This document shows positions 5,749 through 37,498 of a DNA stretch of 48,466 nucleotides, piece after piece. Under the pieces are notes generated by a model that saw only the letters and a program-made list of their open reading frames with translations, did not search any database and was not told the origin of the DNA. The position numbers and the translations under genes were made by a program. Position 1 is the stretch's first letter; the number at the start of each line of letters is the position of its first letter. The DNA is from a virus (lineage: Duplodnaviria > Caudoviricetes): positions 1 to 48,466 of IMG/VR virus record IMGVR_UViG_3300020045_003608, one strand, 5' to 3'.

Positions 5749-5885
5749 AATTTTGTAGTTCCTTAGTTAATGGATTTGTATGATAGTTAAAATACTAAAT
5801 GCAGAAACCGTTAACTAAGCGGCTTGTCGAGTTCGATGCCCTATCTGCATTTGAGTATTAAATCATACTTTAACTGAAAAGTCAA
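5749..5885 (-). promoter_or_regulatory. promoter plus class I structured leader
   Basis: TTGACT-17-TTTAAT; outer stem 5791-5805/5844-5859; loop CUUAGUUAA complementary to UUAACUAAG overlapping the RBS. Confidence 0.7.
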
Positions 5886-6029
5886 ATTTAATTATATGTC
5901 GGTGTAATTTAAAATATAAAGTTATTAAAACTATCAATTATGTTAATTGATAGTTTTAATATTCTACTATTCTACTTCGATAACTAAGATAAGCAATTAT
6001 ACTTGTTTTGCAGTACGTTTGCCAATAGC

Positions 6030-6311
6030 TTATTTATCATATAATTCGTCTAATAATACAATCTTCATAATTTCTCCTTTAGAATTAGCGTATACAGTTT
6101 TCCACAATTTTAGGAATATGTCTTCTGCGTAGATAAATTGTTGTACACAACCATCGTCTATTGAAAATTTTATTCCGTTCATAAAATCATCTTCGATAGT
6201 ATATTTTATACCTTCGTGTCTTGCAATGTAGCATAACTCGCCCATATACGACCACTCTAAATCTAACGCTAATAGCTTCTCAGCTAGGTTTCCCGCGCTA
6301 CCGCTAGGCAT
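6030..6311 (-). CDS. hypothetical protein, paralog of 6527-6817
   Basis: LAEKLLALDLEWSYMGE vs LAEKLLTLNLEWSCVGE; LWKTVY vs LWQTVH. Confidence 0.65.
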   Translation of the reverse strand: MPSGSAGNLAEKLLALDLEWSYMGELCYIARHEGIKYTIEDDFMNGIKFSIDDGCVQQFIYAEDIFLKLWKTVYANSKGEIMKIVLLDELYDK

Positions 6312-6526
6312 CTTGTCGCATGATTATCAACCTTTGCCAAAAACAATCATCAATTTCCGCATTTCCTCAGCATAATCGTCGTCCTCATCGGCACACAATG
6401 GGCTTCAAATTTAATTTGATATTCAGATTCAGTCAAGAATACTTGGTTGTCGATTGCGACGAATACGGTTTGTGTGGATTTTTGCATTTTGTTTCTCCAG
6501 TTTGGTTAGGTTTATTGCAATTAAGT

Positions 6527-6817
6527 TTACTCATCCAACAAATCCCGCAATAACATTGTTTTAGATACCTCGCCAGTAGACCTACCATGTACAGTTTGCC
6601 ACAATTCTAGTATTGGGTCGCTAAATCCAGAAGCATGAGTGTAAATTGTAATACCATCTTCGGTTACAACAGAGAGTTTCACGCCATTTCTATGGGTATC
6701 TTCAATATGACAGTCCACAGTCTTATAAGTCTTTCTATACCAGCGTTCACCGACACATGACCACTCTAAATTTAATGTTAATAGCTTCTCAGCTAGTTTT
6801 CGCATATCTTGTTGCAT
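6527..6817 (-). CDS. hypothetical protein, paralog of 6030-6311
   Basis: Same shared motifs; TTGACA...GATAAT promoter at about 6858-6887. Confidence 0.65.
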   Translation of the reverse strand: MQQDMRKLAEKLLTLNLEWSCVGERWYRKTYKTVDCHIEDTHRNGVKLSVVTEDGITIYTHASGFSDPILELWQTVHGRSTGEVSKTMLLRDLLDE

Positions 6818-6961
6818 TTTGTTGACTCTCTGGTTGGGTTAGTTAAAGTACGAGCATATTATCTACCGCTCGTACTACGTTTGTCAACAGTTATACACCT
6901 AATAATTTAAAAATGTCTACTGCGAGGGCGAGTTTTACCGCGTGGCAAGCTGAGTTGATAG

Positions 6962-7948
6962 CTAGTCATCTAAATCTTCTAATGACTCTTCCGTTGAGTT
7001 TTCTTTAGCTAACCTACGTTTCTCCCAAGCCAAAACTTGCCTAGCTCTAGTCTCCTCTGATACAGGAGGTTTATTCTTTTGAGCTACTGACATATTAGCT
7101 TTAGCTTCGGCTGATTTAGGTTTTCCTTTTTGAGCAGCTCCAATTTTAGCTTTGGTTTCTTCAGTTACTGGAGGTTTATTTTTCTGAGATTCTGACATTT
7201 TAGCGCGAGTTTCTTCTGAGCGTGTTCTACCAGTATTAGCCTCTGAAATTTTAATCCTAGTTTCTTCTGATACAACTCTGCCCATATTTGAAGCAGATAT
7301 TTTAGCACGAGTTTCCTCACTGATAGTTTTACCAATGTTTAACACTGATAGTTTAGCTTTTGTTTCTTCTGACATTGTTTTTCCTGACATCTTAGCTCTA
7401 GTTTCGTCAGATATATTTTTCCCAATCTCAGATAACTTAGCTCTTGTTTCTTCTGATACAACCTTTCCTTTATGTCCTGCTGAAATTTTAGCGCGAACTT
7501 CTTCTGAATGAGTGCGTCCTTTAGAAGCCTCCGATAACTTAGCTTTAGTTTCATCTGAAGTTACTCTAGCAGACATCTTTGCTCTCGTTTCATCAGATAT
7601 ATTTCCCGCAGCCTCAGATATTTTAGCTTTTGCTTCGTCAGAATGTTTCCAACCGCTAATACCCTCTCCTCCATCTGTAGCATTAACTAATTTCACTCCG
7701 CCATTTCTTAAAGCCTTAATCATCCTGACTTCTAAATCTAAAGCGTGCTGTTCAGAACGACAAAGCATACTTCTTACGATGATGTTTTCTTTACCATATT
7801 TATTAACGATTCGGGTGTGGTATTGATTGTGTTTTCGGTGAATTAACTTTAATCTATCTTGAGTCGCTTTTCCAACATAGAATATGCCGTGTTTTTCTGT
7901 AGAATGTGTATAAACATAAAAATCGTTTTGCTTTTTTACTTTTGACAT
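6962..7948 (-). CDS. GIY-YIG homing endonuclease with long NUMOD3 repeat tract
   Basis: Start MSKVKK after TAAGGA; YVYTH...FYVGKA, LVNATDGG; more than 10 SxETRAKxS repeats; close paralog of 5047-5748. Confidence 0.85.
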   Translation of the reverse strand: MSKVKKQNDFYVYTHSTEKHGIFYVGKATQDRLKLIHRKHNQYHTRIVNKYGKENIIVRSMLCRSEQHALDLEVRMIKALRNGGVKLVNATDGGEGISGWKHSDEAKAKISEAAGNISDETRAKMSARVTSDETKAKLSEASKGRTHSEEVRAKISAGHKGKVVSEETRAKLSEIGKNISDETRAKMSGKTMSEETKAKLSVLNIGKTISEETRAKISASNMGRVVSEETRIKISEANTGRTRSEETRAKMSESQKNKPPVTEETKAKIGAAQKGKPKSAEAKANMSVAQKNKPPVSEETRARQVLAWEKRRLAKENSTEESLEDLDD

Positions 7949-8083
7949 CTTTTTTGATTCCTTATAGTGAATAGGTAATTTGATAGTGAATGTACTAAAT
8001 GCGAGCAACCTTCACTAAAGGGCTTTCGGGAGCAAACCTAGCTCGCATTTAGATATTAAATCACATAATCACTGGAATGTCAA
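7949..8083 (-). promoter_or_regulatory. promoter plus class I structured leader
   Basis: TTGACA-17-TTTAAT; perfect 12-bp stem 7995-8006/8041-8052; loop UAGUGAA complementary to two downstream UUCACUA sites. Confidence 0.75.
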
Positions 8084-8559
8084 GATGTAATACCTAAATA
8101 AGTTAGCGATATGAATTCTCAGTCATTAGCCGCTCTGCCGAATAATTTGTTAAATAGGTTCATTTGTGTCTCCAGATAATTTAATTAACCCATCAGTAAA
8201 TTCTGACAAGCGTTCTTTATTTATGCAAAATTTAGACGTTTTCATCTTGAAACAATCTGATAAACATAAACATATTCCACCCATCAGCTACTGTAAAGGA
8301 ATACATCTCGCAGGTGTTGTTTTCAGAAAACGGATTTTTAGATTCCAAAGTATTCATTATTTATTAGACTCCATTTTTTCACCGACAAGCACAACAAATC
8401 CTTGTTTAGACGAGGCTATTTCAGAAACACCAACTGTCCATTTTAACTCAGGTTGTGTCAAACCAACTTCAGCTTCTTGGTTTAATTTCAATAATTGTTC
8501 GATAAGGTCTTTTACTTTCATGACGTTCTTCCTATGTAGTTTTATTTGTACTGCGGAAT

Positions 8560-8589
8560 AGTGTACTACGTTTTTATGCGTAGTACACT
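8560..8589. promoter_or_regulatory. palindromic copy of the CGTAGTACACT motif
   Basis: AGTGTACTACG-8 bp-CGTAGTACACT perfect 11-bp inverted repeat. Confidence 0.5.
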
Positions 8590-8767
8590 TGTTATTTAAA
8601 TAATTTTCATCTTCACAGTGGGTGCATTCATCTCAATCTAATTTGAGACCGTTGCGTGATGCCCATGAAGTTACTTTATCATCAATACCTGCAAATGATA
8701 TTTATAATCTTCGGCGTTACCACTCTTCACAACACCTTTCGACAACCCATTCATAACACTCTCCTTT

Positions 8768-8800
8768 AAAACCCACGCGGAGTTATTCTGCGTGGGTTTT
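8768..8800. terminator. bidirectional intrinsic terminator
   Basis: AAAACCCACGCGGA-GTTA-TTCTGCGTGGGTTTT. Confidence 0.65.
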
Positions 8801-8968
8801 AAGTAATTCTACATTTTTAGCTCTAAGTATACAAATCTATCACTTAATTCGATATTTCCACCTGTCTCTGAAGTATCACCAAGGAAGCTGTAAGTAGCTT
8901 CACTAATATCAACAGTTTTAATTTCAAAATCTTCTAAATATCCCATGTTCACATCCTCTTAGTTTAAA

Positions 8969-10245
8969 TTATTGAATTACAATCAGATTTGTACTTGCCC
9001 TAGACGCAGCAACGTATAAACATTTAAAAGCCACATCTTTGTCATAATTACGCAAAACATCATCAATGTCAATTAAAACATTTTTATACTGCTACCTTGA
9101 CTACTGTGAGCTGTACCAGCATAGACACATTTTACCACCGGGAAATATGCCTGCATTGTGTAGTATTCATCCCACGACTTAGCGTCGGCTAATAATTTCT
9201 TGTGGGTGTTTACAATAGCATCATCAACAGCTACATTGCAACTTAGTTTATCGCCTTCCTCAGTGATAATGTCAATGGTCACACGAGGTATCATTCCAAA
9301 CCTAGACCTGTATTCGGTAACATCACTAATGCTAGTCACAGTACCTTCATAATCAGTGTGAAGCACCACCTCATCAAAATTAGGCGATACTTCTTCCTCA
9401 AAAGAATATCTAGGTGAAGTGGCTAACGCACACAACGGTTTTCTAAACACAATCCTTTCGCCGATAGCGAACTTGGTAGTCAAGTTTGGATACAGTAGCG
9501 ATTGCACCAGAGAATTATACCGGTCAACAGTGGCATTACGATACGCAATAATCTTGGTGTTATTCACATCAGTAAACGCCTTAGCAAACATAGTAGCAGC
9601 TTGCGTCTTGGTCACAAGGTACAGATTATCGCGTAAGGGTAATGCTGGCACGGTGTAGTTTTTAGTTGCAATGCAATCTCTAATCAAATTACACCATTCT
9701 TTTACTGGAGATAACTCAGCTTGACGCATGATAGTGGTCAATTCTGCGTAATCGTCAATCAGAAACGTCTTTGAAATTACCTCACCGACGGGCGGTAACT
9801 GTCTCGAATCACCCAAATAGATAATTTGCGTGTAGGGAGCAGACTTTAATGCCTTAGCAATAAAATCATGTAACGCCGAGCCAATCATTGAACTTTCGTC
9901 AATTACAACAAGTCTATAGTCTGATAATCGACTCTTGGATGATTTAGACGCTTTGATTAGCGTATCGATACCACCTTGCGACTTTACTCGCAAGCCTAAT
10001 AAAGTGTAAATAGTACAAAACTCAATCGCATCATCAGTAATGCCCATTGACGATATGATTTTTACAGCTTTATTTGTAGTAGCTGTGAACACGATTTCAT
10101 GAGTCTCATAGTTATTAAGTAGTCGCTTGATAATGGTACTTTTTCCAGTACCAGCGGCTCCCGTAAGGGCGAATTCACGTTTGTTGGAATTGGTAAAGGC
10201 TATGATTTTATCAAGCGCGGATTGTTGTTCGGTAGTTAGTTGCAT
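8969..10245 (-). CDS. dda: Dda/RecD-like SF1B DNA helicase (frameshifted near the 3' end)
   Basis: Walker A GAAGTGKS, VIDESSM, GDSRQLPPV, AHSSQGS; motif VI (LYVAASRA) lies in the -1 frame after the T5 run at 9081-9085. Confidence 0.85.
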
Positions 10246-11395: not shown

Positions 11396-11577
11396 AAACG
11401 TAAAAATCCTCAATAAAATTGTAAAAAATTAGAAGGTCGAATCACCGTATAGTAGGCGTGTTGGTATTCAATTTATTCCCAACATTCTAATTTTTACAAC
11501 CTCATTGAGGATTTGTAACTATAACTCGAATTCGACCTCGATTGCAAGTATTATTTCATACTTTTACGTTTTGTCAA
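11396..11577 (-). promoter_or_regulatory. promoter plus class II structured leader
   Basis: TTGACA...AATAAT; crossing helices 11530-11538/11434-11442 versus 11504-11514/11404-11414 (RBS) and 11485-11499/11419-11434. Confidence 0.7.
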
Positions 11578-15061: not shown

Positions 15062-15129
15062 AATTTGTTACTCCGAGTTATTTAAAGAAACCAAATTATA
15101 TCACAGTGGATTTGATATTGCAACCAGAA

Positions 15130-15850
15130 ATAGTAAATAATTTACATATATTAACCACAGATAGTGAATACAGCTTATCTATGTGATTTACAGTTACTGC
15201 ATACACCTATTGCAGATGGTTACATATTGTTATTACAGTTTATGTGGAATGTTTACAGATAATTATTACACATTATGTATATGCTTACATATAGTGTTTA
15301 CAGATTAGGTATATGTATTCATATTTAATTCACATATTATGTATACTGCTTGCTTTTATTGATAATTACAAGTTGTTCCAACTTATATTTTGTCGTTACA
15401 CCTCATGACACCAGTGACTACGCGGTCTGAGGTCACATTTATAGCGTTACTTATGATGTTGTAAGACCCCTAAGAGAAAATGAAAGGGTATGTATACAAA
15501 TACTGTATACATAAATAATCGTTACAAGCATTACTGAAATGGAAGAGTGTTATTACGGGCTGGAGACCAGGTAGTTTCGCGGGCTGAGGGCATATTTATA
15601 GTGTTACTTGTGTAGGTGTAAGACCCCCTAAGGGAGGAAGAAAGAGGGTGTATACAAAACCTGTATACATAGGTGATTTTAGGTTTATAAGTCATTGATA
15701 AATAAGGGAATTAAAAAAAAACTCCTTATAAATCAATAGGTTACAAAATAGAGGTATTCACTAGGTATTATACAAATATATATATTATTATTATATATAT
15801 TATTGTTTTATATAGAGATTTTAGGTGTAATGACCATGATTACAAATTAT
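15130..15850. other. putative replication origin
   Basis: Non-coding, beside the primase operon; many TTACA pentamers, two ~93-bp direct repeats, an inverted repeat at 15688-15744 and a near-pure A/T tract at 15774-15804. Confidence 0.55.
15421..15671 (+). repeat. two imperfect ~93-bp direct repeats
   Basis: 15421-15513 vs 15578-15671: CGCGG.CTGAGG.CA..TTTATAG.GTTACTT...TGTAAGACCCC.TAAG...TGTATACAAA..CTGTATACATA. Confidence 0.85.
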
Positions 15851-16062
15851 CCCGATTATGACCTGTAGCCTAGAAAAATCGATTTTTTTTGAAGTGCCTC
15901 AAAGCCACGAAGTTACCTGGGCTTGGTGCCAAAAAAACTCAACTTGCAACAATTTTCGTTACAAGCTATGACACCGAGCCTTACAGGAGACTTTGTTGCC
16001 AAAACGTACTACATCAGCTACAATTCATCTCGCAATCTTGCAAATCTTCAGGAGTCATTACT

Positions 16063-16236
16063 GTGAATACTCAAAATCTAAGCAAACACTCAGCCGCAAT
16101 CCTGTTAGGCGGTACCACCTGGAGTCACCTAATGCGTGAGATTAACGAAGCTAAGTTATGTGATGAATCCTATATGCGCTTAACTGTGCGTCCTACCGGA
16201 GCCGGGTTTGGTTATCGTGTGTATTTACCACTGTGA
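16063..16236 (+). CDS. possible small hypothetical protein
   Basis: GTG start 8 nt after AGGAG, inside ORF 15889-16236. Confidence 0.35.
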   Translation: MNTQNLSKHSAAILLGGTTWSHLMREINEAKLCDESYMRLTVRPTGAGFGYRVYLPL

Positions 16237-16295
16237 CGCAACTAGGCTATGTGGCTATCTGTGATTGGGAGGTTGAGTATTGTGTTTGAATAGGC

Positions 16296-16836
16296 AAAAT
16301 ATGCGATTTAAGGCACCTTAGCAGCACGAAAACACCGTGATCTATACGATTGCATTACCTGTGCAATCAGCGTGGCTTAAATCGCGAGTTTGTTTCTAGG
16401 TAGCAGTATTAGTTGTGTGGATAAATTCTTAGGTTATTACCAAACCTATACCAACACATAGGTTTTAGATTCAATGTGACGAAACCACATAGAACTATTG
16501 AACGAAACGCTTGATATTTTGATTCTTAGGCGGTATTCCTGAGCAGAAGCTAAAGTTATAGGTAAATATAGCTCAAATATGCGTTTTAAGGCACTTCTAA
16601 GGCTCGGAAACTAAAAACCTATGCGTTGGTATCACTCTGGTAGAATAATCGCTTAGAAACTCACCCTAGTGTTGCAATCCTGAAAATGCACAAGTGGTCA
16701 TTGCAGAATCCACCTAGGATTTGAAATCTACTCTATGGCAACTGTGATAATGCCTAAAATTCGCGTTTTAAGGGTATTCTAAGGCTGCCAAATGACATTA
16801 CCTAGGTGTGAGTATCGGTTAGGTTATTTGCGTGGT
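16296..16836 (+). repeat. three degenerate ~85-90 bp repeats (fourth copy at about 18930-19015)
   Basis: AAATATGCGATTTAAGGCAC / AAATATGCGTTTTAAGGCAC / AAAATTCGCGTTTTAAGGGTA starts at about 16296, 16575, 16756. Confidence 0.6.
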
Positions 16837-16868: not shown

Positions 16869-17070
16869 TTGACAATCGACAGTGTTTGTGTATAATACGC
16901 AACTGTCAGCAATGTTTTGTTGACGCCTGAGTGGTATCAGGTATACTAATCATAACAATCACAGTTTCCTTAGAAATAAGGGTTTATAGAGACGCTGAAA
17001 GGCGCAGATTTTGTTATGATTAGTCTGATACCACACTCCGTAAACCCTTAATTTTAAGGAAATTTTTATT
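16869..17070 (+). promoter_or_regulatory. promoter plus class II structured leader
   Basis: TTGACA...TGTGTATAAT; helices 16929-16958/17011-17038 cross 16965-16986/17041-17062, which covers the TAAGGA RBS. Confidence 0.78.
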
Positions 17071-17825
17071 ATGTCTAATTTACAAGTTTTTAATTTTGAT
17101 TCAGCAACAGTTGTCCGCACCTCGTTAGTAGATGGTGATGTTTAGTTTTTAGCCTCTGATATATCCGATTCTTTAGGTTATTCTGAAACATCTAAGGCTT
17201 TAGCATGGTGTAAACGAGCGACCTCTCAGGGCGATGTTAATAAAATCAATGATTTACATCCATCGTTGAAATGGATTCCTGAATCTGATATGTTCCGATT
17301 GATTATGAAGTCTACGAAACCAGAAGCTGAGAAGTTCCAGGACTGGATTTGTGAATCAGTTTTACCCTCAATCCGCAAAACAGGCTCATATTCTATCAAC
17401 AAAAACCAGACATTGAGGAAACAATTAAAGAAATGAATCTCCAGATGCGATTACTAACCTCACTTGGAAAAGCCAAAGATTACGAATTGGGTATGTTGAT
17501 GTTCGAGGAAGAAATGGGCTATCACCCAACTATTTTCTTACCTAGTCAGAAAACAATGACTTTCGATGAAAAACGTACCAAGATTCTCAACGCAGTGTCG
17601 CATATTTTAACCAACGGTAACTCTAGGGATTGTGATAAATTTAACGTATTGGCAATTGATGGCATTGTGACATTCACCGCTTTAAATTCGAGACTTAGAG
17701 GAATTGCTATTTTCAAAGGCGTTGATTTTAAATACCACGTTGAACGATTAGTAAATTCAGGAGATTTAATCAAAGTTGATTTAACTGAGTATGGTTTTAA
17801 GGCTGAAGGTTATCGATTAGGCTGA
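17071..17825 (+). pseudogene. BRO-N protein fused to a primase C-terminal-like domain; in-frame TAG and 1-nt frameshift
   Basis: Hand translation MSNLQVFNFD...DGDV*FLASDI...IPESDMFRLIMKSTKPEAEKFQDWICESVLPSIRKTGSYS; TAG at 17143 where BRO-N has Trp; joins ORF 17433 by a -1 shift at A5 17401-17405. Confidence 0.8.
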
Positions 17826-17871: not shown

Positions 17872-18022
17872 TTGACTCACGCACTAAACTGTGATTTAAT
17901 ACCCACAGATGTTTTAAGTATGTGAGTACCAGTCATGATAGCTTAAAACATTTTATTTAACTCAATGGATAACGTACTGGTACTACGCTTGAAGTTGGGT
18001 TTTTTAATTTAAGGAGATTACA
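17872..18022 (+). promoter_or_regulatory. promoter plus class III (loop-loop/terminator) leader
   Basis: TTGACT-17-TTTAAT; AGTACCAGT (17925-17933) complementary to ACTGGTACT (17976-17984); U-tract at 18000-18005. Confidence 0.65.
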
Positions 18023-18799
18023 ATGCAACAGTTAGACATTTTACAGTTCAACAACAACGAAATTCGCAAAGTTATCGATAATGATAACAACACATGGTTT
18101 GTAGCTAAAGATATTTGCGAAGGATTATTTATCAGCAACGTTAGTGATGCACTTACTAAACTTGATGAGGATGAAAAGAGCGATATAGTTTTAACCGATA
18201 CCGCAGGTAGACCTAATAAATTCACCATTGTGAATGAATCTGGGATGTATGGGTTAACTATGTCATCGAGAAAGAAAGAAGCCCGTGAGTTTAAGAAATG
18301 GCTACGTTCCGAAGTTTTACCGAGTATTCGTAAAACAGGTAGTTACTCATTACCTAATGTAATTACCGCAGTAGATAACCTACCAACACCTCGCTCACAG
18401 GCTATTACTGTGATTAAAGAATGTTTGGAATTGACAAGTTTGTTTAATATCCCTGAGCATATTTCACAGGTAGAAGCTGTTAAGCAAGCTCAAGATGAAA
18501 CTGGGTATGATGCGTCACCGATGTTAAAATTAGCTCCTGCTCAACAGAACGTGGCTAAAGAAGTTATCATGTTAGAGCCTACTCCGCTTAGTAAGCATTT
18601 CGGTTTATCCGCCATTACTATGAATAAATATCTTGAGGAGTTAGGGTTGCAGCACAAGGTATTAGACAACTGGCATCCAATGGCAGAAGGTATCGCAATG
18701 TCGGCTATCAACCATTGGAAAAATAATTACGGTTCTAAAGACGGATACAATTATCGCTGGAATTTGACGATGTTGAAAGAATTTATTGCTAATAGGTAA
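18023..18799 (+). CDS. BRO-N antirepressor-like protein with KilA-C/ANT-like C-terminus
   Basis: TWFVAKDIC, VNESGMYGL..SRKKEAREFKKWLRSEVLPSIRKTGSY. Confidence 0.88.
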   Translation: MQQLDILQFNNNEIRKVIDNDNNTWFVAKDICEGLFISNVSDALTKLDEDEKSDIVLTDTAGRPNKFTIVNESGMYGLTMSSRKKEAREFKKWLRSEVLPSIRKTGSYSLPNVITAVDNLPTPRSQAITVIKECLELTSLFNIPEHISQVEAVKQAQDETGYDASPMLKLAPAQQNVAKEVIMLEPTPLSKHFGLSAITMNKYLEELGLQHKVLDNWHPMAEGIAMSAINHWKNNYGSKDGYNYRWNLTMLKEFIANR

Positions 18800-20025: not shown

Positions 20026-20193
20026 TTGACAAATCACCTATTCTGTGAAACAATACTCTGGTAGTTAGAGATATTTAATTTTCACGGACAGGTGGTATAA
20101 ATTAAACCTTTCTTTCTACATCTTATCCTTGTGTATAGACCCTGTCCGGTTTGTATGCAGGGATTTTTTGTTTTATTTTAGAAAGGAAAGGTT
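20026..20193 (+). promoter_or_regulatory. promoter plus class III leader with intrinsic terminator
   Basis: TTGACA-17-AACAAT; CGGACAGG (20085-20092) complementary to terminator loop CCTGTCCG (20141-20148); 16-bp stem with G-U pairs plus U-tract. Confidence 0.78.
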
Positions 20194-21065: not shown

Positions 21066-21219
21066 TTGACAAATCAAACTATTTATGAAACAATACCGTC
21101 TGAATCTTTAGATTTGGTCGGGAAGGACTTATAAATCTAAACGTTTTCATCTAGCCTGCTTATAATCATACTTCCCTATGGTTATTCGGAGGCTTTTTTG
21201 TTTTAACGAGGAATGGAAT
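21066..21219 (+). promoter_or_regulatory. promoter plus class III leader with intrinsic terminator
   Basis: TTGACA-17-AACAAT; loop GGGAAG (21120-21125) complementary to loop CTTCCC (21171-21176) of a hairpin ending in TTTTTTG. Confidence 0.75.
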
Positions 21220-21920
21220 ATGACAGATTTAGTAGTATTTGAAACACCAATTTCAATGGATTCAGAAGGTAGATTTCGCTTAAATGATTTACATAAAGCG
21301 TCAGGTGGTGAACAACGTAATCGTCCAAATTATTGGCTTGAAAACGATAAAACAAAAGAATTTATAGAAGTCGTAAAATCGGCATCGGGCGAATTTACTG
21401 GTGTAGAGTCTGTTGTTACAGTAAAAGGCGGTGCGAAACAAGGAACCTTCGTGGTCAAAAGCCTCGTATACGCATACGTGATGTGGTTATCTCCTGCTTT
21501 TCAGCTCCATGTGATTGAAGCATTTGATAAACTCGTATCAGATAAAATCACTGAATTAGAATGGGTAGGTGTTAGAACTATTGTGAAGCAAGAATTCAAA
21601 ATATGAATTTTGCTAAGAAGAGTTTTCTTGAGGATAATAACAAGCCAATTACGCCTAAGGACTTTATAGACGAAGCCGATTTGATTAACTGTGTGGTATT
21701 AGGTATGCGAGCGAATAAGTATCGTGAAGCTAATAATATGACTAAGAAAGAGTCAATTCGAGATAGGTTATCGAAAGAAACTCTCGATATTATTGAAACG
21801 TTAGAGGTCATGAATACCCAACTTATAAACTGTGGTTTAATTCTAAGCGAAAGGTATTATCGAATATTGGATTTCTACAATAGACGGTATGGTGATGTGT
21901 CTAAGCTGCTTAGTAAGTAA
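21220..21920 (+). pseudogene. KilA-N protein split by a 1-nt frameshift
   Basis: RFRLNDLHKASG..RPNYWL..QGTFV..YVMWLSPAF; ORF 21603-21920 is in frame if the A4 at 21598-21601 were A5. Confidence 0.75.
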
Positions 21921-26650: not shown

Positions 26651-26786
26651 TTGACTTTATAGTAAATTCATGTTAGCATTTAACAGTGAGATAGGACTGT
26701 ACATCCGACAAACCCTTTAGTAAGGCTTCTCACTTTAACAATACTAATCATATCATCCTAAATTACTATAAAGGAATCAAAAATAA
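26651..26786 (+). promoter_or_regulatory. promoter plus class I structured leader
   Basis: TTGACT-17-TAGCAT; stem AGTGAGA/TCTCACT; TAGTAA loop complementary to TTACTA (26763-26768) beside the RBS. Confidence 0.7.
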
Positions 26787-27815
26787 ATGTCAAAAGTTAA
26801 ATATAAACAGCTCCCATCTCAGCAGTACCTTAAAGAATGCTTCGATTACAACACTGAATCAGGTAAATTAGTTTGGAAAGAAAGACCTTTATCGCATTTT
26901 AAGAATACGCACGGGACATCTCACTTTAATTCACGCTATAAAGGATGTGTTGCAGGCACGCTATATGATACTGGATATGTTGAGGTATCTATAAATAAAA
27001 AAAGATTTAAGCTACATAGGTTAATCTGGAAATATCACATGGGAGACGACCCTATAGGACTTATCGACCATATCGATAGAGATAAATCTAACAACAGAAT
27101 TGAAAATTTACGAGATGTATCGCATATTGAAAATTCAAATAATAAATCAAATTCAAATGACTGCATCGGAGTTTATTTTATTCTAAATAGGTGGGAAGGT
27201 AGATTGACAATAAAAGGGAATTTAGTGTTGCTAGGTAGGTTTAAAAATAAGAATGATGCAATTGACGCTGTAAATTCAGCCAGAGTAAAAGATTGGTCTC
27301 ATTTAGAGACTAAGGTTAAAGTTAAGGGTACTTTGACATTAGAATATCTAAACGATAATTATGTGTATGAAAATGGGCATTTAGTTAGAAATAATAGGCG
27401 CGTAGGTAGTATTTCGGCAACTGGATATTCTATAGTTACTATTTTAAACGTATCGTATCAAGTCCATAGAGTGATTTATTGGTTATGCACTGGGATAAAA
27501 CCTGAGAATGGTGATGTAATTGACCATATTAACGGTGATAAATTAGATAATAGGATTGAAAATCTGAGATTAGTAACTGTGAGTCAAAATGGAATGAATA
27601 GAAAGGTATCACGTAGTAATACGTCAGGGTATGTAGGGGTGACATTTTGTAAAGACTCTCAAAAATGGAATGCTTCATTATATGAAGATAACAATCATGT
27701 TTACCTCGGCACATTCCAAACCAAAGAAGAAGCCGTCTCAGCCAGAAAAGCCGCCGAAGAACTCTATCACGGTGAATTCGCTAGAGTAACCACTACACAA
27801 GGAGAAATAAAATGA
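26787..27815 (+). CDS. tandem HNH-AP2 homing endonuclease
   Basis: Two HNH motifs (IDHIDRDKSNNRIENLR; IDHINGDKLDNRIENLR) plus AP2 domains; paralog of 10298-11395. Confidence 0.85.
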   Translation: MSKVKYKQLPSQQYLKECFDYNTESGKLVWKERPLSHFKNTHGTSHFNSRYKGCVAGTLYDTGYVEVSINKKRFKLHRLIWKYHMGDDPIGLIDHIDRDKSNNRIENLRDVSHIENSNNKSNSNDCIGVYFILNRWEGRLTIKGNLVLLGRFKNKNDAIDAVNSARVKDWSHLETKVKVKGTLTLEYLNDNYVYENGHLVRNNRRVGSISATGYSIVTILNVSYQVHRVIYWLCTGIKPENGDVIDHINGDKLDNRIENLRLVTVSQNGMNRKVSRSNTSGYVGVTFCKDSQKWNASLYEDNNHVYLGTFQTKEEAVSARKAAEELYHGEFARVTTTQGEIK

Positions 27816-27990: not shown

Positions 27991-28065
27991 TGGCTAGTAG
28001 CAGATGGGTAATGCAATTGACTGTTAATCAATGAAATGTTGGTTCGAATCCAACCTAGCCAGCCA
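27991..28065 (+). tRNA. tRNA-Asn(GTT)
   Basis: Acceptor TGGCTAG/CTAGCCA, anticodon arm ATTGA-CTGTTAA-TCAAT, T arm GTTGG-TTCGAAT-CCAAC, encoded CCA; promoter TTGACA-17-TTTAAT at 27953-27981. Confidence 0.93.
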
Positions 28066-28074
28066 AAGATTTAT

Positions 28075-28148
28075 TGCTCCTTAGTGTAGAGATAACACAG
28101 GTGATTTTGATTCATCTATCATACGTTTGATTCGTATAGGAGCTGCCA
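28075..28148 (+). tRNA. tRNA-Gln(TTG), atypical
   Basis: Acceptor TGCTCCT/AGGAGCT, D arm GTGT/ACAC, anticodon arm GGTGA-TTTTGAT-TCATC, T arm ATACG-TTTGATT-CGTAT, encoded CCA. Confidence 0.8.
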
Positions 28149-28544: not shown

Positions 28545-28677
28545 TTGCGTTTTAGGTGAGAGTGTGGTAGGATGATATAAATAAAGTGAGATAGGTGGAT
28601 ACATCGAAAAGCCTTGAGTAAGCAATTCTCACTTTAACTTTAAATACTCGCAGAATCTCATAACTCAGGAGTTTAAG
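28545..28677 (+). promoter_or_regulatory. promoter plus class I structured leader
   Basis: TTGCGT-17-TAGGAT; stem AAAGTGAGA/TCTCACTTT; TGAGTA loop complementary to TACTC (28645) and ACTCA (28663) at the RBS. Confidence 0.6.
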
Positions 28678-29514: not shown

Positions 29515-31486
29515 AAAAGTAATTTGGACACCTAATCCTGGTAGTCAATCATTAGCATTACAAGTACCTGCTGATATTGTCTGTGTACATGGGGGTAGAG
29601 GCGGAGGGAAGAGCGACACTCAGTTGTTTCGATACCGCCAAACAGTACACCAAGGGTACGGTAGGCACTGGAGGGGCTTAATCGTGGACAGAACCTACTC
29701 CGCTCTTGAAGATTTAATCAATAAAACTAAAAAATACTTTCCGTTATTTAACGACGGAGCGAGATTCCTCGAGAGTCGGGGCGCGTACAAATGGGTTTGG
29801 AAGGACGGAGCAGAGCTATTATTCCGTGCCGTCGCTGACGAAGATGATTATTCAAAATTGCATGGTCACGAATTTTGTCTACATATCAATGAGTTAATAG
29901 ATATTGAAGGTAAGGGTTTAGTTGAAATAAAAGACGTTATTGTAGGTGACAAAATTTTAACACCCGTTGGTTACAAGTCAATAACAAAAGTTTTTCCGAT
30001 ACAAGATAAAGAATGTAACACTGTTTATGTGTTTGATAAACAAAATAACATTATCGGACACCAGATTCAATCGACAGACCATAAACTTCTTACCAGTAAA
30101 ATTAGAGGTTTTCAGAAGGCTAAAAACAGACAATCCGTTGCGTTAATGAGCGATGTTGTTGGTGACGATTGGTTTCCGCATCCATATAAAACACATGAAT
30201 CAGTTTTCACTAAATTTAAGTTTGAAAGTGGCACGATTCAAGTTGCACCTTGCGGAATAAAACCAACAATTGACATTACAGTAGAAGACGTGAATTGTTA
30301 CGTCAGTCCAGTCACGCGATTGATTTCTCGTAACTGTTTTATTGGAATTAACGAGGCTACAAAATACCCAGATACTAAAGTGTTAGACTTACTAATGAGT
30401 TTAAACAGAACATCATTCGTACCCGAAGAAAACCCTCTACCAGACGGAACTGTTCTACCACCTATACCAATGTGTGTATTCATCACCACGAACCCTAGCG
30501 GCAGCGGACGATTACCATTCAAGCAGCGTTTCATTGATAAATCTGCGCCAGGAGAAATTCTGAAAACTGAAGTTGAAGTATTTAATCCTCGCACACAAGA
30601 AAAAGAAATTATCACAAAAACACAAGTACATATTTTTTCTAGTTGTTTAGAAAATCTACAATTAGACCCTTCCTATATAGCTGATTTACAATCAATATCT
30701 GACCCAATAAAACGCGCACAGTGGTATTTAGGCGACTGGGGTTCATGTGACGATACTGAAAATATGTTTGCTGATATATGGCAGCCCAATGTCCATGTGA
30801 TGAAACCGTTTGCAATACCTGAATCATGGAAAATCTATCGCTCTTACGACCACGGAGAAGCAAAGCCGTTTAGTGTTGGCTGGCACGCTATTTCTGACGG
30901 CTGCGATGTTGAATTACATGATAATAGAACTATCAGCACGGTGAAGGGTGATATTTTCAGAATTGCTGAGTGGTATGGTTGTGAAGTAGGAAAGCGTAAT
31001 ACAGGTCTTAGGATGCTTGCTACAGACATCGCAAAAGGCATCATAGAAAAAGAAATATCATTAGGGATTTACGGTAAAGTTATCCCAGGTGCAGCAGACA
31101 ATGCTATCTGGACAGTTGAAAATGGCAACAGTATCGCAGCATCAATGATGCGTCCAGTTAGATTAGATAGTGGACGTACCGTCTCAGGTGTAACATGGGC
31201 AAGGTCTGATAAAGGTTCTGGGAGTAGAGTAGTAGGTTGGTCTAATATGCGAAAGCATTTAGCTGGTGCAATTAAGCCCCTATCTGGAGTAAGAGAATAT
31301 GCGGGGTTATTTATCTTTGATACCTGTCATGATTTTATTAAATTAGTAGATACTATTCCAAGGGATAAAAATAACCCCGATGACATCGATACTAAGGCAG
31401 AGGATCACATTTTCGACGAAGCACGTTATTTTATCCTCTCCACCGCCACTGGCGCACGCTCAGGTAAAACAGTAGGTCTATCATGA
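29504..31486 (+). CDS. terL: terminase large subunit (contains an intein)
   Basis: Walker A GGRGGGKS, Walker B-like FIGINE, motif C TTNPSG, nuclease SYDHG...PDDIDTKAEDHIFDEARY. Confidence 0.93.
   Translation: MENRKVIWTPNPGSQSLALQVPADIVCVHGGRGGGKSDTQLFRYRQTVHQGYGRHWRGLIVDRTYSALEDLINKTKKYFPLFNDGARFLESRGAYKWVWKDGAELLFRAVADEDDYSKLHGHEFCLHINELIDIEGKGLVEIKDVIVGDKILTPVGYKSITKVFPIQDKECNTVYVFDKQNNIIGHQIQSTDHKLLTSKIRGFQKAKNRQSVALMSDVVGDDWFPHPYKTHESVFTKFKFESGTIQVAPCGIKPTIDITVEDVNCYVSPVTRLISRNCFIGINEATKYPDTKVLDLLMSLNRTSFVPEENPLPDGTVLPPIPMCVFITTNPSGSGRLPFKQRFIDKSAPGEILKTEVEVFNPRTQEKEIITKTQVHIFSSCLENLQLDPSYIADLQSISDPIKRAQWYLGDWGSCDDTENMFADIWQPNVHVMKPFAIPESWKIYRSYDHGEAKPFSVGWHAISDGCDVELHDNRTISTVKGDIFRIAEWYGCEVGKRNTGLRMLATDIAKGIIEKEISLGIYGKVIPGAADNAIWTVENGNSIAASMMRPVRLDSGRTVSGVTWARSDKGSGSRVVGWSNMRKHLAGAIKPLSGVREYAGLFIFDTCHDFIKLVDTIPRDKNNPDDIDTKAEDHIFDEARYFILSTATGARSGKTVGLS
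29876..30334 (+). mobile_element. mini-intein (153 aa, no endonuclease domain)
   Basis: Begins CLH, block B STDH, block F TIDITVE, ends SRN followed by Cys+1; removal restores LHGHEF-CFIGINE. Confidence 0.88.
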
Positions 31487-32652: not shown

Positions 32653-32672
32653 AACACTCGGAGAATTATAAA

Positions 32673-33382: not shown

Positions 33383-33607
33383 ATGGAGGGTTTAGTGCAT
33401 TTAAAATTAGGGAATAAGTTATGTAATTCATCTTTTTGGAAGTTATTACAAATTTTCATTAACCTACTGACAATTGGATTGCCTATTTTAACAATGATTT
33501 CACCGGAGTTTAACATTGACGCTAGTAAATTAGCAACTATTATCACAACTGTCGCTGCGATGAATTTATACTTAACAACCGCTACTACTGAGGACATTGG
33601 TTTATGA
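33383..33607 (+). CDS. small membrane protein, possible holin
   Basis: Two hydrophobic segments; start uncertain. Confidence 0.4.
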   Translation: MEGLVHLKLGNKLCNSSFWKLLQIFINLLTIGLPILTMISPEFNIDASKLATIITTVAAMNLYLTTATTEDIGL

Positions 33608-33649
33608 TTAAACTAACAATACCTACTAATCTAAGAAGGTTTATATCGT

Positions 33650-33856
33650 ATGAATAAACTAAAATTAACAATGACTACCGACCTAGCTAAACGCTATCAT
33701 ACAAAGAAATTCAAACGCTCGTTATCAGCCCTATACCAAAAGAAACTACTCCACGAGTTTAGAATATGCTTACAGTACGACGCGCTTCACAAAATACCTG
33801 TGATAATCACACTGTGGGAAATGTCTAAAGAATCTACTAAAGGAACTACTAAATGA
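33650..33856 (+). CDS. basic hypothetical protein
   Basis: 68 aa, overlaps the portal start. Confidence 0.45.
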   Translation: MNKLKLTMTTDLAKRYHTKKFKRSLSALYQKKLLHEFRICLQYDALHKIPVIITLWEMSKESTKGTTK

Positions 33857-35376
33857 TTAACGCAGCACACCCATTATATTCCGAGCAAATTGCAGACTGG
33901 CAACTACTCAGAGACAGCTACAAAGGCGAAGACGCTATCAAACGAAAAGGTGTAGCGTATCTACCCCCTACCGGTGGACAAACGTTAGACGGTATGACTT
34001 CTACACAAGATGTAGGCTTCCAAAACTATACTTCATACAAAACTCGCGCTATCTACCCCGATTACATCCACACAGCTATTGAATCTTATGTGGGTTTATT
34101 ACACAACAAACCTACAGCCATCACATTACCTCCTGAAATGGAATTCATGCGTGACAAGGCTACTATTACAGGAGATTCTCTTGATAACCTTCTACGTCGA
34201 ATTCATGTCCAACAACTTATTACTGGGCGTGTCGGTCTACTTTTAGATATTGAATCGAAAGCATCTACAGGTACGCCACAACCCTATATAGCAATGTATC
34301 ATGCTGAGAATATCTTAAATTGGGACGATGGGGATGTGATTGATGGCAAAAACGCATTGAATCTAGTCATGCTTGACGAGTCTAATTATTTTAGGTCATC
34401 AGACTTCACATGGTATTATCGCAATAAGTACCGTATCTTAACATTAGGCGACGTACTTCTGTTTGAAGATGAAAACGAAAACGCCGTTTACAAACAATCA
34501 GTATCAGAATCACAATCTTTAAATAGCGCAATTACAATTACTCCACAAGTTTATAGTCAACCATTAGAAGAAATCCCATTCGTATTTATCAATTCAAAAG
34601 ACATCCTCACTACACCTGATGTACCGCCGTTATTGGGACTTGCTCGAGCTTGTTTATCAATCTACCGAGCAGAAGCTGATTACCGTCACACGTTGTATAT
34701 GCAAGGTCAAGAAACACTTGTTGTGATTGGCGGTAATAACAACCCTGACGAAGAAACTCGCGTAGGTGCAGGTAGCAAAATTGAAGTTCACCCTGGCGGA
34801 GATGCTAAATTCATTGGTGTGTCATCAGCAGGTTTATCTGAGATGCGTCAGTCGCTTGAAAATGACCGTAGCGCAGCACAAGCTAAAGCAGGGCAGTTGC
34901 TTAACTCTAAATCTACACAAGAGTCAGGTGACGCTCTACGTCTTAGAATGGTTGCTCAAACAGCTAATCTTACGCAAATTGCAATCACTGCTGCGTATGG
35001 TGTAGAAAAACTACTCAAGATTTGTGCAGTATGGATGAAATGCGACCCTGAAATGGTTTCTGTGACCCCTAACCTAGACTTTGTGAATACGTCTATGCAC
35101 GGTCAAGATTATGTGCAGTTGATGCAAGCTATTGCGATGGGACTACCTTTGCAAGAAGAGTCAATCCATGACATCTTGCGTACGCAGAAGCTAACTACTA
35201 AGTCTTATGCTGAGGAATCTAAGGCTGCTAATAAGGAGCGTGAGGTTAGATTAGCTGCAACTATGACACAAGGTGAGCAAACTACTGCAACAAACGCTGA
35301 TGGTAACCCTGTAGGTACAGCTAAACCTGTGAGTAATCCTAGTAAAACTTTGAAACTAGGTGTCTCTAATAAGTAA
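33853..35376 (+). CDS. portal protein (DUF4055 type)
   Basis: HPLY..WQLLRD..GE..IK..G..YLP, YKTRA, GRVGLLLD, YHAENILNW, IPFVF, PPLLGLA; position after terL. Confidence 0.9.
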   Translation: MINAAHPLYSEQIADWQLLRDSYKGEDAIKRKGVAYLPPTGGQTLDGMTSTQDVGFQNYTSYKTRAIYPDYIHTAIESYVGLLHNKPTAITLPPEMEFMRDKATITGDSLDNLLRRIHVQQLITGRVGLLLDIESKASTGTPQPYIAMYHAENILNWDDGDVIDGKNALNLVMLDESNYFRSSDFTWYYRNKYRILTLGDVLLFEDENENAVYKQSVSESQSLNSAITITPQVYSQPLEEIPFVFINSKDILTTPDVPPLLGLARACLSIYRAEADYRHTLYMQGQETLVVIGGNNNPDEETRVGAGSKIEVHPGGDAKFIGVSSAGLSEMRQSLENDRSAAQAKAGQLLNSKSTQESGDALRLRMVAQTANLTQIAITAAYGVEKLLKICAVWMKCDPEMVSVTPNLDFVNTSMHGQDYVQLMQAIAMGLPLQEESIHDILRTQKLTTKSYAEESKAANKEREVRLAATMTQGEQTTATNADGNPVGTAKPVSNPSKTLKLGVSNK

Positions 35377-35408
35377 TATCCAAATAACCAACAAGTAGCA
35401 CATAAATC

Positions 35409-35437
35409 TTGACAAATCAACATCTATGTGCTAATAT
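35409..35437 (+). promoter_or_regulatory. sigma70-like promoter (CTTGACAAATCA family)
   Basis: TTGACA-17-TAATAT with TG extension. Confidence 0.65.
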
Positions 35438-35467
35438 CAATTTTTATTTTTAATTAAGGAGTATAAC

Positions 35468-35539
35468 ATGGCTAAAGCGAAAAAAGCAACACCTAAGAAA
35501 GCAACAGGTAAAATGCCAATGAAAGGTAAAGGCTGCTAA
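35468..35539 (+). CDS. 23-aa lysine-rich peptide
   Basis: MAKAKKATPKKATGKMPMKGKGC with TAAGGAG RBS, own promoter and a downstream hairpin (35548-35574). Confidence 0.6.
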   Translation: MAKAKKATPKKATGKMPMKGKGC

Positions 35540-35619
35540 TATCTTTTAAGTAGCTGCTTCACGGTAGCTACTTTTGTAACCATTAAACAAAACTAACTAA
35601 CCAACCTATTAGAGAAAAC

Positions 35620-36429
35620 ATGACTATTCAATTAAACGTACAAGAAGACAACTTAGATTCTGTACCAGCACAATTCCACGAATTATACACACAAGACGGT
35701 GATAAATTCAAACTATCTGGCATCAACGGCTTAAAGACATCTGAAGATGTCGCTAAATTAAGCGAGGCTATCCGTAAGGAACGTGAGAATCACGCATTAG
35801 CTAAAGTAGAATTGGCTGCGTATAAAGAAATCAATCTTGAGCCAGCGTTCATCATGGAGCAGTTGTCCTTAGTTGAGGAGCTTAAAGCTGCTAAAGAAGC
35901 CAAACAAGATGATGGTAAATTTGACCAAGCGGTTGCTTCTGTGGCAGACGCTAAAGCGAAAGCTGTCATTCGCCCACTCGAAGCTAAGTTGCAACAATTA
36001 GAGCAAGAATACTCTACAGCCACTGTGCGATTACAACAGTTTGAGCAAGAAAAGAAAGCTCGTATTATCACAGATAGCGTGCAGTCAGCAATTACCAAAC
36101 ACAAAATCTCACCTGAGTTTCATGAGCATATTCACTTGGTAGCTGAGCGTGAATTTGAAGTTGATGATAACACAAACCCAGTAACTCGTGATGGCTTACG
36201 CGGCGTGCCAGGTTACTTAAATCCTGAGTTATGGATTTCTGAATGTCAATCTCGTTACCCACATTGGTTTGGTACTCATGTAGGTGGTGGCGCAATGGGG
36301 TCTGGTAGTACAGCAGGCACTGTGAATCCATTTGCTGAAAAATCGTTTAATGCTACTGCACAAGCAAGAATGATTCGTGATAACCCTGCGTTAGCAGAAC
36401 GTATGAAACAGGCAGCTGGAGTTAGATGA
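35620..36429 (+). CDS. head scaffolding protein
   Basis: LDSVPAQFHELY, long coiled coil, PHWF..GGGA.G, NPF..FNAT.Q. Confidence 0.82.
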   Translation: MTIQLNVQEDNLDSVPAQFHELYTQDGDKFKLSGINGLKTSEDVAKLSEAIRKERENHALAKVELAAYKEINLEPAFIMEQLSLVEELKAAKEAKQDDGKFDQAVASVADAKAKAVIRPLEAKLQQLEQEYSTATVRLQQFEQEKKARIITDSVQSAITKHKISPEFHEHIHLVAEREFEVDDNTNPVTRDGLRGVPGYLNPELWISECQSRYPHWFGTHVGGGAMGSGSTAGTVNPFAEKSFNATAQARMIRDNPALAERMKQAAGVR

Positions 36430-36881
36430 TCATGCAAAGATATATCGGAGTAATCTTGATTAAAGCTATCGCTATGAAATTACTTGACGCTGAAAAACAA
36501 ATGCGATGCCAAATTTCATATAAAGTTGGTATTCCCGACAATGATAGGGATACGAATGGATATATTGTAACGTTACAAGAAGATTCATGTCCATATGATA
36601 TATGGATGACTAAAGAACAATTCGATAAAGAATATCGTCCAATTGACGGTATGACATTCGGTCTTGCAATTGAAGCGTTAAAACAAGGCAAAAAAGTTGC
36701 GCGTGCTGGTTGGAATGGAAATGGTATGTACCTTGAAGCTCAGTTTCCTGACGAGCGAAGCAAAATGACTCACCTATATCTTTTTATGACGATACCAGAA
36801 TGCAAAGAAGGTACACGAAGAATTCCTTGGCAACCAGCACAAGTAGATTTGTTCGGCGAAGATTGGAGTATCGTCGAATAA
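36426..36881 (+). CDS. DUF2829 / Tad2-like protein
   Basis: MTFGLAIEALKQGKKVARAGWNG..MYL...PWQPAQVDLFGEDW. Confidence 0.8.
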   Translation: MIMQRYIGVILIKAIAMKLLDAEKQMRCQISYKVGIPDNDRDTNGYIVTLQEDSCPYDIWMTKEQFDKEYRPIDGMTFGLAIEALKQGKKVARAGWNGNGMYLEAQFPDERSKMTHLYLFMTIPECKEGTRRIPWQPAQVDLFGEDWSIVE

Positions 36882-36907
36882 AAAACAAATTAACTTTCTC
36901 CAAGGTT

Positions 36908-36941
36908 GACCCAATCTGCTAATTTAGAGGTTGGGTTTTTT
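36908..36941 (+). terminator. intrinsic terminator
   Basis: GACCCAATCT...AGGTTGGGTT-TTTTT. Confidence 0.65.
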
Positions 36942-36963
36942 ATTATTAAACGAGGATTAAAAA

Positions 36964-37296
36964 ATGCGAATTGATATGAGCGAAACAAGCGAGACATCGG
37001 AATGCTTAAAATTTTTAGCGGTTGGAAGTCACGCTGAAGTTTATTTAGACGGTAACGATATTACTGATTCAGCGGTATTTGTAGCAGATGAAGAATTGGG
37101 TTATGTTGAAAGATATGCCTCCGACTATATGAAAAGCAGTCGTGCAAATCCATACCCTGACGATTTGCCAAAAACTGAAAAGGTATTTGGCAAAGTGGAA
37201 ATCAAGTTTATTAAACCGACAGGTGACGATGAGAATTCTCAGAATATCAGGTTGCTGATTGACGATATTGTTGATGTAGATAGAATTATTGAATAA
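36964..37296 (+). CDS. acidic hypothetical protein
   Basis: 110 aa, GAGGA RBS. Confidence 0.65.
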   Translation: MRIDMSETSETSECLKFLAVGSHAEVYLDGNDITDSAVFVADEELGYVERYASDYMKSSRANPYPDDLPKTEKVFGKVEIKFIKPTGDDENSQNIRLLIDDIVDVDRIIE

Positions 37297-37364
37297 CAAT
37301 TTGAAGATTTTGTGATAGCGGTTTTTATTTACTTTAAAATAAAAACGTAGTACACTATTAGAGC

Positions 37365-37498
37365 TTGACATTTGCATGAATCTATGATTTAATATGCACA
37401 GTGTCTCAGCACGAAAACAATTATCAAATATCCTTATATGTAACGGCTGTTGGGTTTTTATTGTACCCTCTGAGAGCAGCCACCATAAAGGACTCAAA
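37365..37498 (+). promoter_or_regulatory. promoter plus class II structured leader
   Basis: TTGACA-17-TTTAAT; TCTCAG (37404) / CTGAGA (37470) crossing TCCTTATATG..GGCTGT / GCAGCC..CATAAAGGA (RBS). Confidence 0.65.

Follow-up and report, generated by a model that had tools for sequence, protein, structure and literature searches.

Covarying leaders with matched loop and target sites precede ten endonuclease and Bro-network genes of one phage genome

The C4 RNA of phages P1 and P7, which is processed by RNase P, and the CI RNA of P4 are among the described systems closest to the leaders reported here. In both, the regulator RNA lies inside the leader of the transcript that it controls and acts through short complementary sites (PMC4825925, PMC10111431, PMC8201110). 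CI RNA pairs with seqA and seqC and thereby brings about termination (PMC4825925), and immunity RNAs are located among Bro-network genes (PMC10111431). IsrK of Gifsy-1 is a short leader isoform that targets its own longer mRNA in trans and thereby governs the expression of an antirepressor gene (PMC4825925). In T-even phages, single hairpins sequester the ribosome-binding site (RBS) of the endonuclease genes I-TevI/II/III, segB and mobE and are relieved by an internal late promoter (PMC2988022). Here we analysed an entire virus record, IMGVR_UViG_3300020045_003608 (48,466 bases; the window), in which ten endonuclease and antirepressor-like genes each have a promoter and a long leader with a loop complementary to a downstream site. 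On comparative evidence from homologues these leaders are a real, covarying regulatory set that works like C4/CI by architecture without being a member of either.

A covarying set of ten leaders

An initial annotation of the window had proposed ten such cassettes, and the observation itself is confirmed. All ten complementary words were located, that of the 17071 leader (genes are named by the position of their start codon) as a 10-nt perfect match plus a 2-nt bulge instead of 12 perfect pairs. Homologues bear out the division into three architecture classes, the covariation of loop and target, and the likeness in logic to C4/CI. In class 1, two separate sites with at least five Watson-Crick pairs to the guide loop were found in 24 of 40 cognate cases versus 3.6% of non-cognate pairings, and 0 of 20,000 permutations reached the cognate sum, a test in which independence is overstated, the sequences being related. 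In classes 2 and 3, whose relatives were recognised partly by eye, automatically assigned keys (the matching segments of the 5' hairpins) had cognate matches of at least 6 nt in 14 of 16 leaders versus 11% of non-cognate pairings; again 0 of 20,000 permutations did as well, and this held also for the ten relatives alone. The start codons and gene types of the ten genes are as first annotated:

5047..5748, minus strand: GIY-YIG/NUMOD3 homing-endonuclease-like gene, 233 aa
6962..7948, minus strand: GIY-YIG/NUMOD3 gene, 328 aa
10298..11395, minus strand: double HNH-AP2 endonuclease gene, 365 aa
17071..17436, plus strand: Bro-N antirepressor-like gene, with an in-frame TAG at 17143-17145 (codon 25)
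18023..18799, plus strand: Bro-N antirepressor-like gene, 258 aa
20194..20970, plus strand: Rha/Ant-like regulator gene, 258 aa
21220..21606, plus strand: KilA-N gene, 128 aa
26787..27815, plus strand: double HNH-AP2 endonuclease gene, 342 aa
28678..29514, plus strand: GIY-YIG/NUMOD3 gene, 278 aa, overlapping the start of terL
37499..38260, plus strand: KilA-N gene, 253 aa

These three GIY-YIG, two HNH, two Bro-N, one Rha-like and two KilA-N genes make up five of the seven endonuclease genes in the window and all five of its Bro-N/Rha/KilA-N genes. The remaining endonuclease genes, 38932 (plus strand) and 47926 (minus strand), lack such a leader; the latter, a GIY-YIG gene at 46919-47926, runs antisense to the tail operon behind a short leader and is placed alike in the related contigs G003 and G004. 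(G002 to G005 denote related contigs, of which G003 is complete; L-numbers denote viral loci found in searches.) At least seven such leaders are present in G003, so the phage group is characterised by many cassettes per genome. In the window, two regulator genes seem to be broken while their leaders are intact: 17071 contains a stop codon and 21220 is split at 21603-21606, the latter together with the open reading frame (ORF) 21603-21920 matching one 248-aa ORF in G003 and G004. No confirmed viral relative of the Bro-N 18023 protein turned up.

Measured from the predicted start site, the leaders are 99-168 nt long for nine genes and about 98 nt for 28678, and the first helix starts at, or directly after, the predicted transcription start. 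The TTGAC-type promoter ascribed to all ten genes holds for nine; that of 28678 is likely TTGCGT-17-TAGGAT, which is also present in G002. Nor does the promoter type mark a cassette. With a promoter matrix, in which the 28678 training promoter had been entered in the wrong register, TTGAC-17-extended -10 was seen to head at least eight other genes, whose leaders are just 3-42 nt. The specific part is thus the long leader. Two tRNA genes (27991-28145, plus strand) lie immediately downstream of a promoter of the same type, and at 39592-39770 (plus strand) the major capsid gene has its own promoter and a different structured leader of about 145 nt (z -5.2), well conserved in G002, in which a purine-rich segment may pair with the loop of the last hairpin.

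Taken singly, the leaders differ in how far their complementarity exceeds that of shuffled DNA: dinucleotide shuffling gave p values of 0.001-0.05 for seven leaders and of 0.07 (7948), 0.22 (26787) and 0.52 (28678) for the others. The question of chance complementarity is settled by the homologues. The proposal that the ten codes are orthogonal is largely upheld by a 10 x 10 cross-test, in which the cognate partner was best in nine of ten rows by run length and in eight of ten by duplex energy.

We compared the leaders with Rfam and with the described systems. Models of C4 (RF01695), isrK, riboswitches and ribozymes gave no match in the window (E<=10) or in 17 relatives; resemblances to the hammerhead and to c-di-GMP-I were considered and dropped for lack of an Rfam hit. 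As in C4/CI, ant/Bro-network genes lie downstream, here in the form of the five Bro-N, Rha-like or KilA-N genes. Unlike in C4/CI, there is no cloverleaf, most leaders have one guide loop and not two, a palindromic and potentially dimerising loop is present, homing endonucleases are among the clients, and the phage is apparently without integrase. RNA structure restricts homing endonuclease translation in T-even phages too (PMC2988022), whereas here the promoter lies upstream of the entire fold, which includes a variable loop with one or two matching sites. A literature search, with most subscription journals outside its scope, turned up no paper that deals with the function of such leaders. 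The supplement of PMC10690425 catalogues candidate RNAs that precede genes of the HNH, GIY-YIG, Bro-N and KilA types, and classes 2 and 3 may be among them.

Class 1 and the Rfam family int-alpA

The class 1 leaders, those of 5748, 7948, 26787 and 28678, share a three-way junction, P1-UA-P2-GAMAA-P3, and a variable guide loop that matches two sites, T1 near the junction and T2 over the RBS:

5749..5885, minus strand: class 1 leader of 5748; promoter -35 at 5885; junction 5781-5852 with palindromic P2 loop; guide loop 5810-5820; T1 5784-5790; T2 5762-5770 over the RBS; model E 5e-12
7949..8083, minus strand: class 1 leader of 7948; promoter -35 at 8083; junction 7982-8049, the P2 loop palindrome merely a 2-nt GC; guide loop 8010-8020; T1 7982-7990; T2 7960-7971; model E 2e-7
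26651..26786, plus strand: class 1 leader of 26787; promoter -35 at 26651; junction 26683-26752 with 6-nt palindromic P2 loop; guide loop 26715-26724; T1 26742-26748; T2 26763-26774; E 6e-8
28545..28677, plus strand: degenerate class 1 leader of 28678; likely promoter TTGCGT-17-TAGGAT from 28545; junction 28583-28651; guide loop 28613-28622; T1 28645-28651; T2 28662-28669; E 0.07

To collect relatives we scanned for the class 1 pattern, which gave 20 + 86 viral loci and 22 genome loci, 95 unique matches in total; none of the 22 loci found in GTDB genomes with the strict pattern is a convincing copy. Filtering on P1 pairing alone left 59 rows, two of them added by hand, of which 57 were parsed to yield 40 unique guide loops. 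Window leader 28678 and its G002 copy were dropped at parsing, and the doubtful loci L125, L151 and L199 were kept. In the resulting 40-sequence alignment, a set selected for P1 pairing, 94% of cells are paired with 161 double changes, and the pairs tolerate G-U. A model built from the alignment without window sequences, its training set including one close relative (L092), recovered precisely the four class 1 leaders from the window, without any further hit there. The minimum free energy (MFE) z-scores of these leaders are just -0.2 to -1.9.

Class 1 leaders have T1 at a distance of 15+/-2 nt from the junction, and in 36 of 37 of them no more than 13 nt separate the end of T2 and the start codon. 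In 34 of 37 the two sites share at least 3 nt of guide-loop bases, and because both use the same bases one loop is unable to cover both. Within 15 nt of P1, 40 of 52 leaders have a -10-like hexamer, compared with 6 of 52 control windows, which makes it likely that transcription starts at the fold. The P2 loop contains a palindrome of at least 4 nt in 16 of 22 unique loops versus 5.5 expected (0 of 20,000 shuffles), in a near-fixed register, and guide loops are depleted in palindromes (5 of 40 versus 12 expected). The palindromic P2 loop points to pairing between two RNA copies.

Codes and clients vary at this kind of leader. At the 26787 site in G002, upstream of an orthologous HNH gene, the guide loop and both target sites are altered together; at the 28678 site an HNH gene replaces the GIY-YIG gene with promoter and code unchanged. 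Among class 1 downstream ORFs, 26 of 39 are HNH, GIY-YIG or EndoVII-type nucleases, the rest including a polymerase, an integrase and eight unknowns. Class 1 leaders were found in 5 of 80 Rha-like loci and, by protein-guided search, in 0 of 80 loci of 7948-like GIY-YIG relatives, which shows that the leader does not track the nuclease family. All five cultured-phage hits examined carry a class 1 leader, with a nuclease downstream in KY981271 and MH179474 and a structural or unknown gene in the other three; the copy in Curvibacter phage P26059A (KY981271), upstream of a GIY-YIG gene, is clean. In two cultured phages (L539 897-967, L542 895-965) the leader faces a structural or hypothetical gene, has a weak second site and points away from a neighbouring EndoVII/HNH gene.

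The claim that such leaders had not been described has to be narrowed. The four window leaders are divergent relatives of the Rfam family int-alpA (RF02996), typed there as 'Gene; sRNA', and not members by score: none of the window copies gives an Rfam match at all, the gathering cut-off being 35.8 bits. Relatives outside the window do pass it, namely L107 (42.7 bits), 7 of 20 loci (at L081 the passing copy is a second one) and L300. Four int-alpA hits were obtained in bacteria, from 3 of 151 genomes; the class 1 model recovered all four, and they have palindromic P2 loops and two loop-matching sites. Class 1 and int-alpA share the three-way junction with its UA and GAMAA linkers, a pyrimidine tail and the first target, whereas the Rfam model stops at T1 and draws no loop pairing, and classes 2 and 3 fall outside it. 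The placement between integrase and alpA that the family name suggests is not seen here, with window copies preceding GIY-YIG/HNH genes and most relatives preceding endonucleases. Within the scope of our literature search no function for int-alpA was found in print. The family presumably goes back to Weinberg et al. 2017, the main text of which lacks the name. Its pairings may be described in the supplement of PMC5737381. PMC12370729 and PMC13612085 name int-alpA and neither is about its function. Class 1 thus extends a catalogued orphan motif.

Classes 2 and 3

The six other leaders belong to two classes that are uncatalogued in Rfam, where they have no match. All six have a 5' hairpin whose loop is complementary to a site that stays unpaired within a terminator or an RBS-sequestering helix. 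In class 2 the hairpin loop matches the loop of a terminator-like hairpin over 9 nt (18023), 8 nt (20194) and 6 nt (21220). In class 3 a small 5' hairpin matches a site that lies beside inner hairpins, inside a long outer helix, which is either a helix between the Shine-Dalgarno (SD) sequence and an anti-SD segment or, as in several relatives, a terminator:

17872..18022, plus strand: class 2 leader of 18023; promoter -35 at 17872; hairpin key 17924-17934; target 17976-17984, located in the loop of a weak terminator-like hairpin that starts at 17959
20026..20193, plus strand: class 2 leader of 20194; promoter -35 at 20026; key 20084-20093; anti-SD segment; terminator 20125-20164 with target 20141-20148 in its loop
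21066..21219, plus strand: class 2 leader of 21220; promoter -35 at 21066; key 21119-21126; target 21171-21176, located in the loop of a terminator-like hairpin that starts at 21153
11396..11577, minus strand: class 3 leader of 11395; promoter -35 at 11577; 5' hairpin key 11529-11538; target 11434-11442; long outer helix that covers the RBS, ends in a U run and encloses two hairpins
16869..17070, plus strand: class 3 leader of 17071; promoter -35 at 16869; key 16929-16938 with a second complementary segment behind it; target 17025-17034; anti-SD:SD helix, with a zipper of about 28 bp as the alternative fold
37365..37498, plus strand: class 3 leader of 37499; promoter -35 at 37365; 5' hairpin key 37403-37410; bulged target 37470-37475; anti-SD:SD helix with inner hairpin

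Class 2 loops differ completely between leaders, and both classes have little conserved sequence. Independent examples of class 2 are L259, which has a different code, and a G003 leader that has the 18023 code upstream of an unrelated gene. The sole ortholog of the 37499 leader keeps the code and compensates its stems. The architecture is carried by the five best KilA-N matches (four unique, with new codes) and by the best Rha-like match, and distant loci are mostly without it: the class 2 terminator descriptor, at 6 nt or more, found 1 of 60 unique Bro-N upstream regions, 0 of 57 unique KilA-N regions (nine read by eye) and none of the Rha-like regions. Clients are exchanged here too, leaders of the 11395 type occurring elsewhere upstream of KilA-N genes and the 17071-type hairpin upstream of Ant, Rha and HNH genes. 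The 17071-type pattern matched 67 loci, mostly by chance; four that look real by eye were excluded from the covariation test, having been selected on the code. The automatic key finder missed the keys of 37499 and G003-71256.

The arrangement of class 2 and of terminator-type class 3, in which an upstream hairpin pairs with the terminator region and would cause read-through, recalls the guanidine-IV riboswitch (PMC11611296) and the pLS20 zipper-type attenuator (PMC13401043). Unlike guanidine-IV, these leaders have no Rfam riboswitch match and no conserved ligand core; in pLS20 the upstream hairpin pairs with the terminator itself, whereas here it pairs with a site enclosed by the terminator. 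A 5'-end antiterminator for class 2 was discarded, as the bases that it needs lie upstream of the predicted start site.

Two further structures stood out. The first inner hairpin of 11395-type leaders (window 11396-11543, minus strand; L450; G005 near 4228) has a conserved AU-rich loop of 14 nt, for which the neighbourhood yielded no complement and which is possibly a nuclease or protein site. At about 26675-26795 (plus strand) of G003:C1, upstream of a Rha-like gene, there is a fourth leader layout, in which a 20-nt segment and a downstream site form a terminator and an alternative long hairpin would enclose the 20-nt segment.

Possible mechanism and its alternatives

To relate these arrangements to expression, we folded leaders as nascent prefixes and at full length. 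In 10 of 11 class-3-type leaders the prefix up to the target folds with key paired to target, excluding the outer helix; at full length the outer helix wins and the target is mostly unpaired. Class 3 is therefore predicted to be ON in nascent RNA and OFF in full-length RNA, with key and target exposed when OFF. These nascent-ON and full-length-OFF folds, like the palindromic second loop of class 1, lend indirect support to an interaction of two RNA molecules. In cofolds, capture of the nascent target by a cognate 5' fragment was seen for 2 of 3 window leaders, as against 0 of 6 combinations with non-cognate fragments. The SD helix remained closed in 9 of 9 complexes, so action in trans would repress.

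The reading that we favour, at roughly even confidence, is a C4/CI-like negative feedback made of RNA alone, in which the leader RNA of a gene acts in trans on that gene. A second leader copy, as a terminated or trimmed short form, would pair with the site and shut its own gene off. In class 3, zipping of key and target in the nascent RNA would prevent the terminator or anti-SD:SD helix (ON), and the helix of the full-length RNA would set the OFF state. In class 1, the guide loop may first bind the near site T1 in cis, leaving the RBS free; two leaders could then meet through their palindromic loops and the second guide loop would cover T2 on the RBS. In class 2, the hairpin loop would kiss the terminator loop in cis and keep the terminator from zipping up, and a free copy occupying the loop would let termination go ahead. 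Such a kiss would be antiterminating because the linkers between the hairpins (6, 18 and 11 nt) are estimated to be too short beside two full-length stems. In favour of this reading, several relatives have a terminator as outer helix, and an attenuator that is ON by default requires an outside input. Nucleases and Bro-network proteins would be expected to appear in a short burst that is then damped, and co-infecting copies with a common code would silence each other.

A number of observations weigh against trans feedback. Pairing in cis produces covariation of loop and site just as well. In the three window class 1 leaders scored, the guide loop pairs more strongly with T2 than with T1, which suits plain cis repression, and only two of the four window class 1 leaders have a P2 palindrome of at least 4 nt. 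The junction core is more conserved than an antisense RNA needs. In 17071 the cis zipper beat the trans fragment; the nascent prefixes of class 2 window leaders formed the key:target pairing in 0 of 3 cases, in a nested folding that cannot model a kiss; and the 18023 terminator is weak, being absent from the MFE fold and missed by a terminator scan. Class 2 and 3 relatives were picked out in part by inspection. Finally, the 5748 leader is a better partner for the 26787 loop than the 26787 leader itself, so codes cross-react and the suggestion that each RNA silences only its own gene was too strong.

The most serious competitor, which we consider clearly less likely than trans feedback, dispenses with the second RNA. 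Here each leader would be a dosage limiter in cis, allowing brief translation while a trapped ON fold lasts (loop on T1, or zipper) before the RBS-blocked fold forms, with terminators serving as fixed read-through. This accounts for all the covariation, for the OFF state of full-length MFE folds beside the ON state of nascent folds and for the strength of T2, and the T-even endonuclease genes under cis RBS hairpins provide a precedent (PMC2988022). It leaves unexplained, however, the palindromic P2 loop at a fixed register and the exposure of the key in a hairpin loop in the OFF fold, and terminator versions that are ON by default would have nothing to sense.

The twelve invariant columns of the junction, partly imposed by the search pattern, could instead reflect a switch whose junction or kissing complex is recognised, and tipped ON or OFF, by the encoded DNA-binding protein, by a host factor or by a small molecule; the class 2 layout resembles the proposed guanidine-IV kissing-loop antiterminator (PMC11611296). 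This is unlikely, as the leaders head unrelated proteins (endonucleases of three families, polymerase, integrase, Rha-like), the loops vary freely and classes 2 and 3 conserve little sequence. Activation in trans is less probable still. In that case the full-length mRNA would be OFF and a short leader RNA would turn it on, giving delayed, threshold-type expression, as IsrK does for an antirepressor gene (PMC4825925) and as OFF folds with an exposed target would allow. IsrK activates, whereas the geometry here predicts repression: T2 of class 1 sits on the RBS, where binding blocks, and the SD helix stayed paired in every cofold combination. Chance complementarity in AT-rich intergenic DNA, or repeats or operators at the DNA level, has a negligible likelihood despite three leaders without significance of their own and the modest class 1 z-scores, given the paired cells and double changes (in a set selected for P1 pairing), the compensated code changes with G-U pairs and the model recovery; for class 1, that recovery and the cognate versus non-cognate permutation refute it.

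The record, with a completeness estimate of 79%, is that of a tailed phage, with ligase, helicase, primase, terminase, portal, capsid and tail genes identified in the window. Named relatives of its Rha-like protein hint at a host among the Methylococcales. The large terminase has an intein-like insert at about 29875-30335 (plus strand), on both sides of which G003 and G005 align, and a protein with a Tad2-like (Thoeris anti-defence) domain is encoded at 36426-36881 (plus strand). A long non-coding divergence point at 15100-16800, with paired direct repeats of about 50 nt placed 157 nt apart and a 33-nt triplet, is possibly an origin or packaging region. No integrase was found among the 56 proteins of this incomplete record or among 39 of 61 larger ORFs checked of G003, which encodes its own polymerase and reductase. 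Immunity in the lysogen sense, as first suggested, is therefore doubtful; it is more likely that the feedback operates in the course of a single infection or among genomes that co-infect a cell.

More tentatively, and with appreciably less confidence than we place in trans feedback itself, we propose that phages equip selfish nucleases and Bro-network genes with portable, self-counting leaders, of three or more architectures, which would sense copy number by RNA alone. The palindromic loop of the int-alpA type would join two RNAs, and the guide loop, held by a decoy site in a lone RNA, would block the RBS only with a second copy. Two code layers could then run ten circuits per genome and decide which co-infecting alleles silence each other.

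What the window adds is the connection of three architectures with one logic, swapped between nuclease and Bro-network genes and present as ten leaders in one genome. If the proposed mechanism is true, an orphan Rfam family would gain a function, and it would be accounted for how free-standing homing endonucleases with a strong promoter of their own escape over-expression. A dimer-gated, decoy-buffered RNA switch with natural code variants would offer compact orthogonal parts for feedback. The logic of C4 and CI would widen from a few temperate phages to many unrelated phages, cultured ones included.

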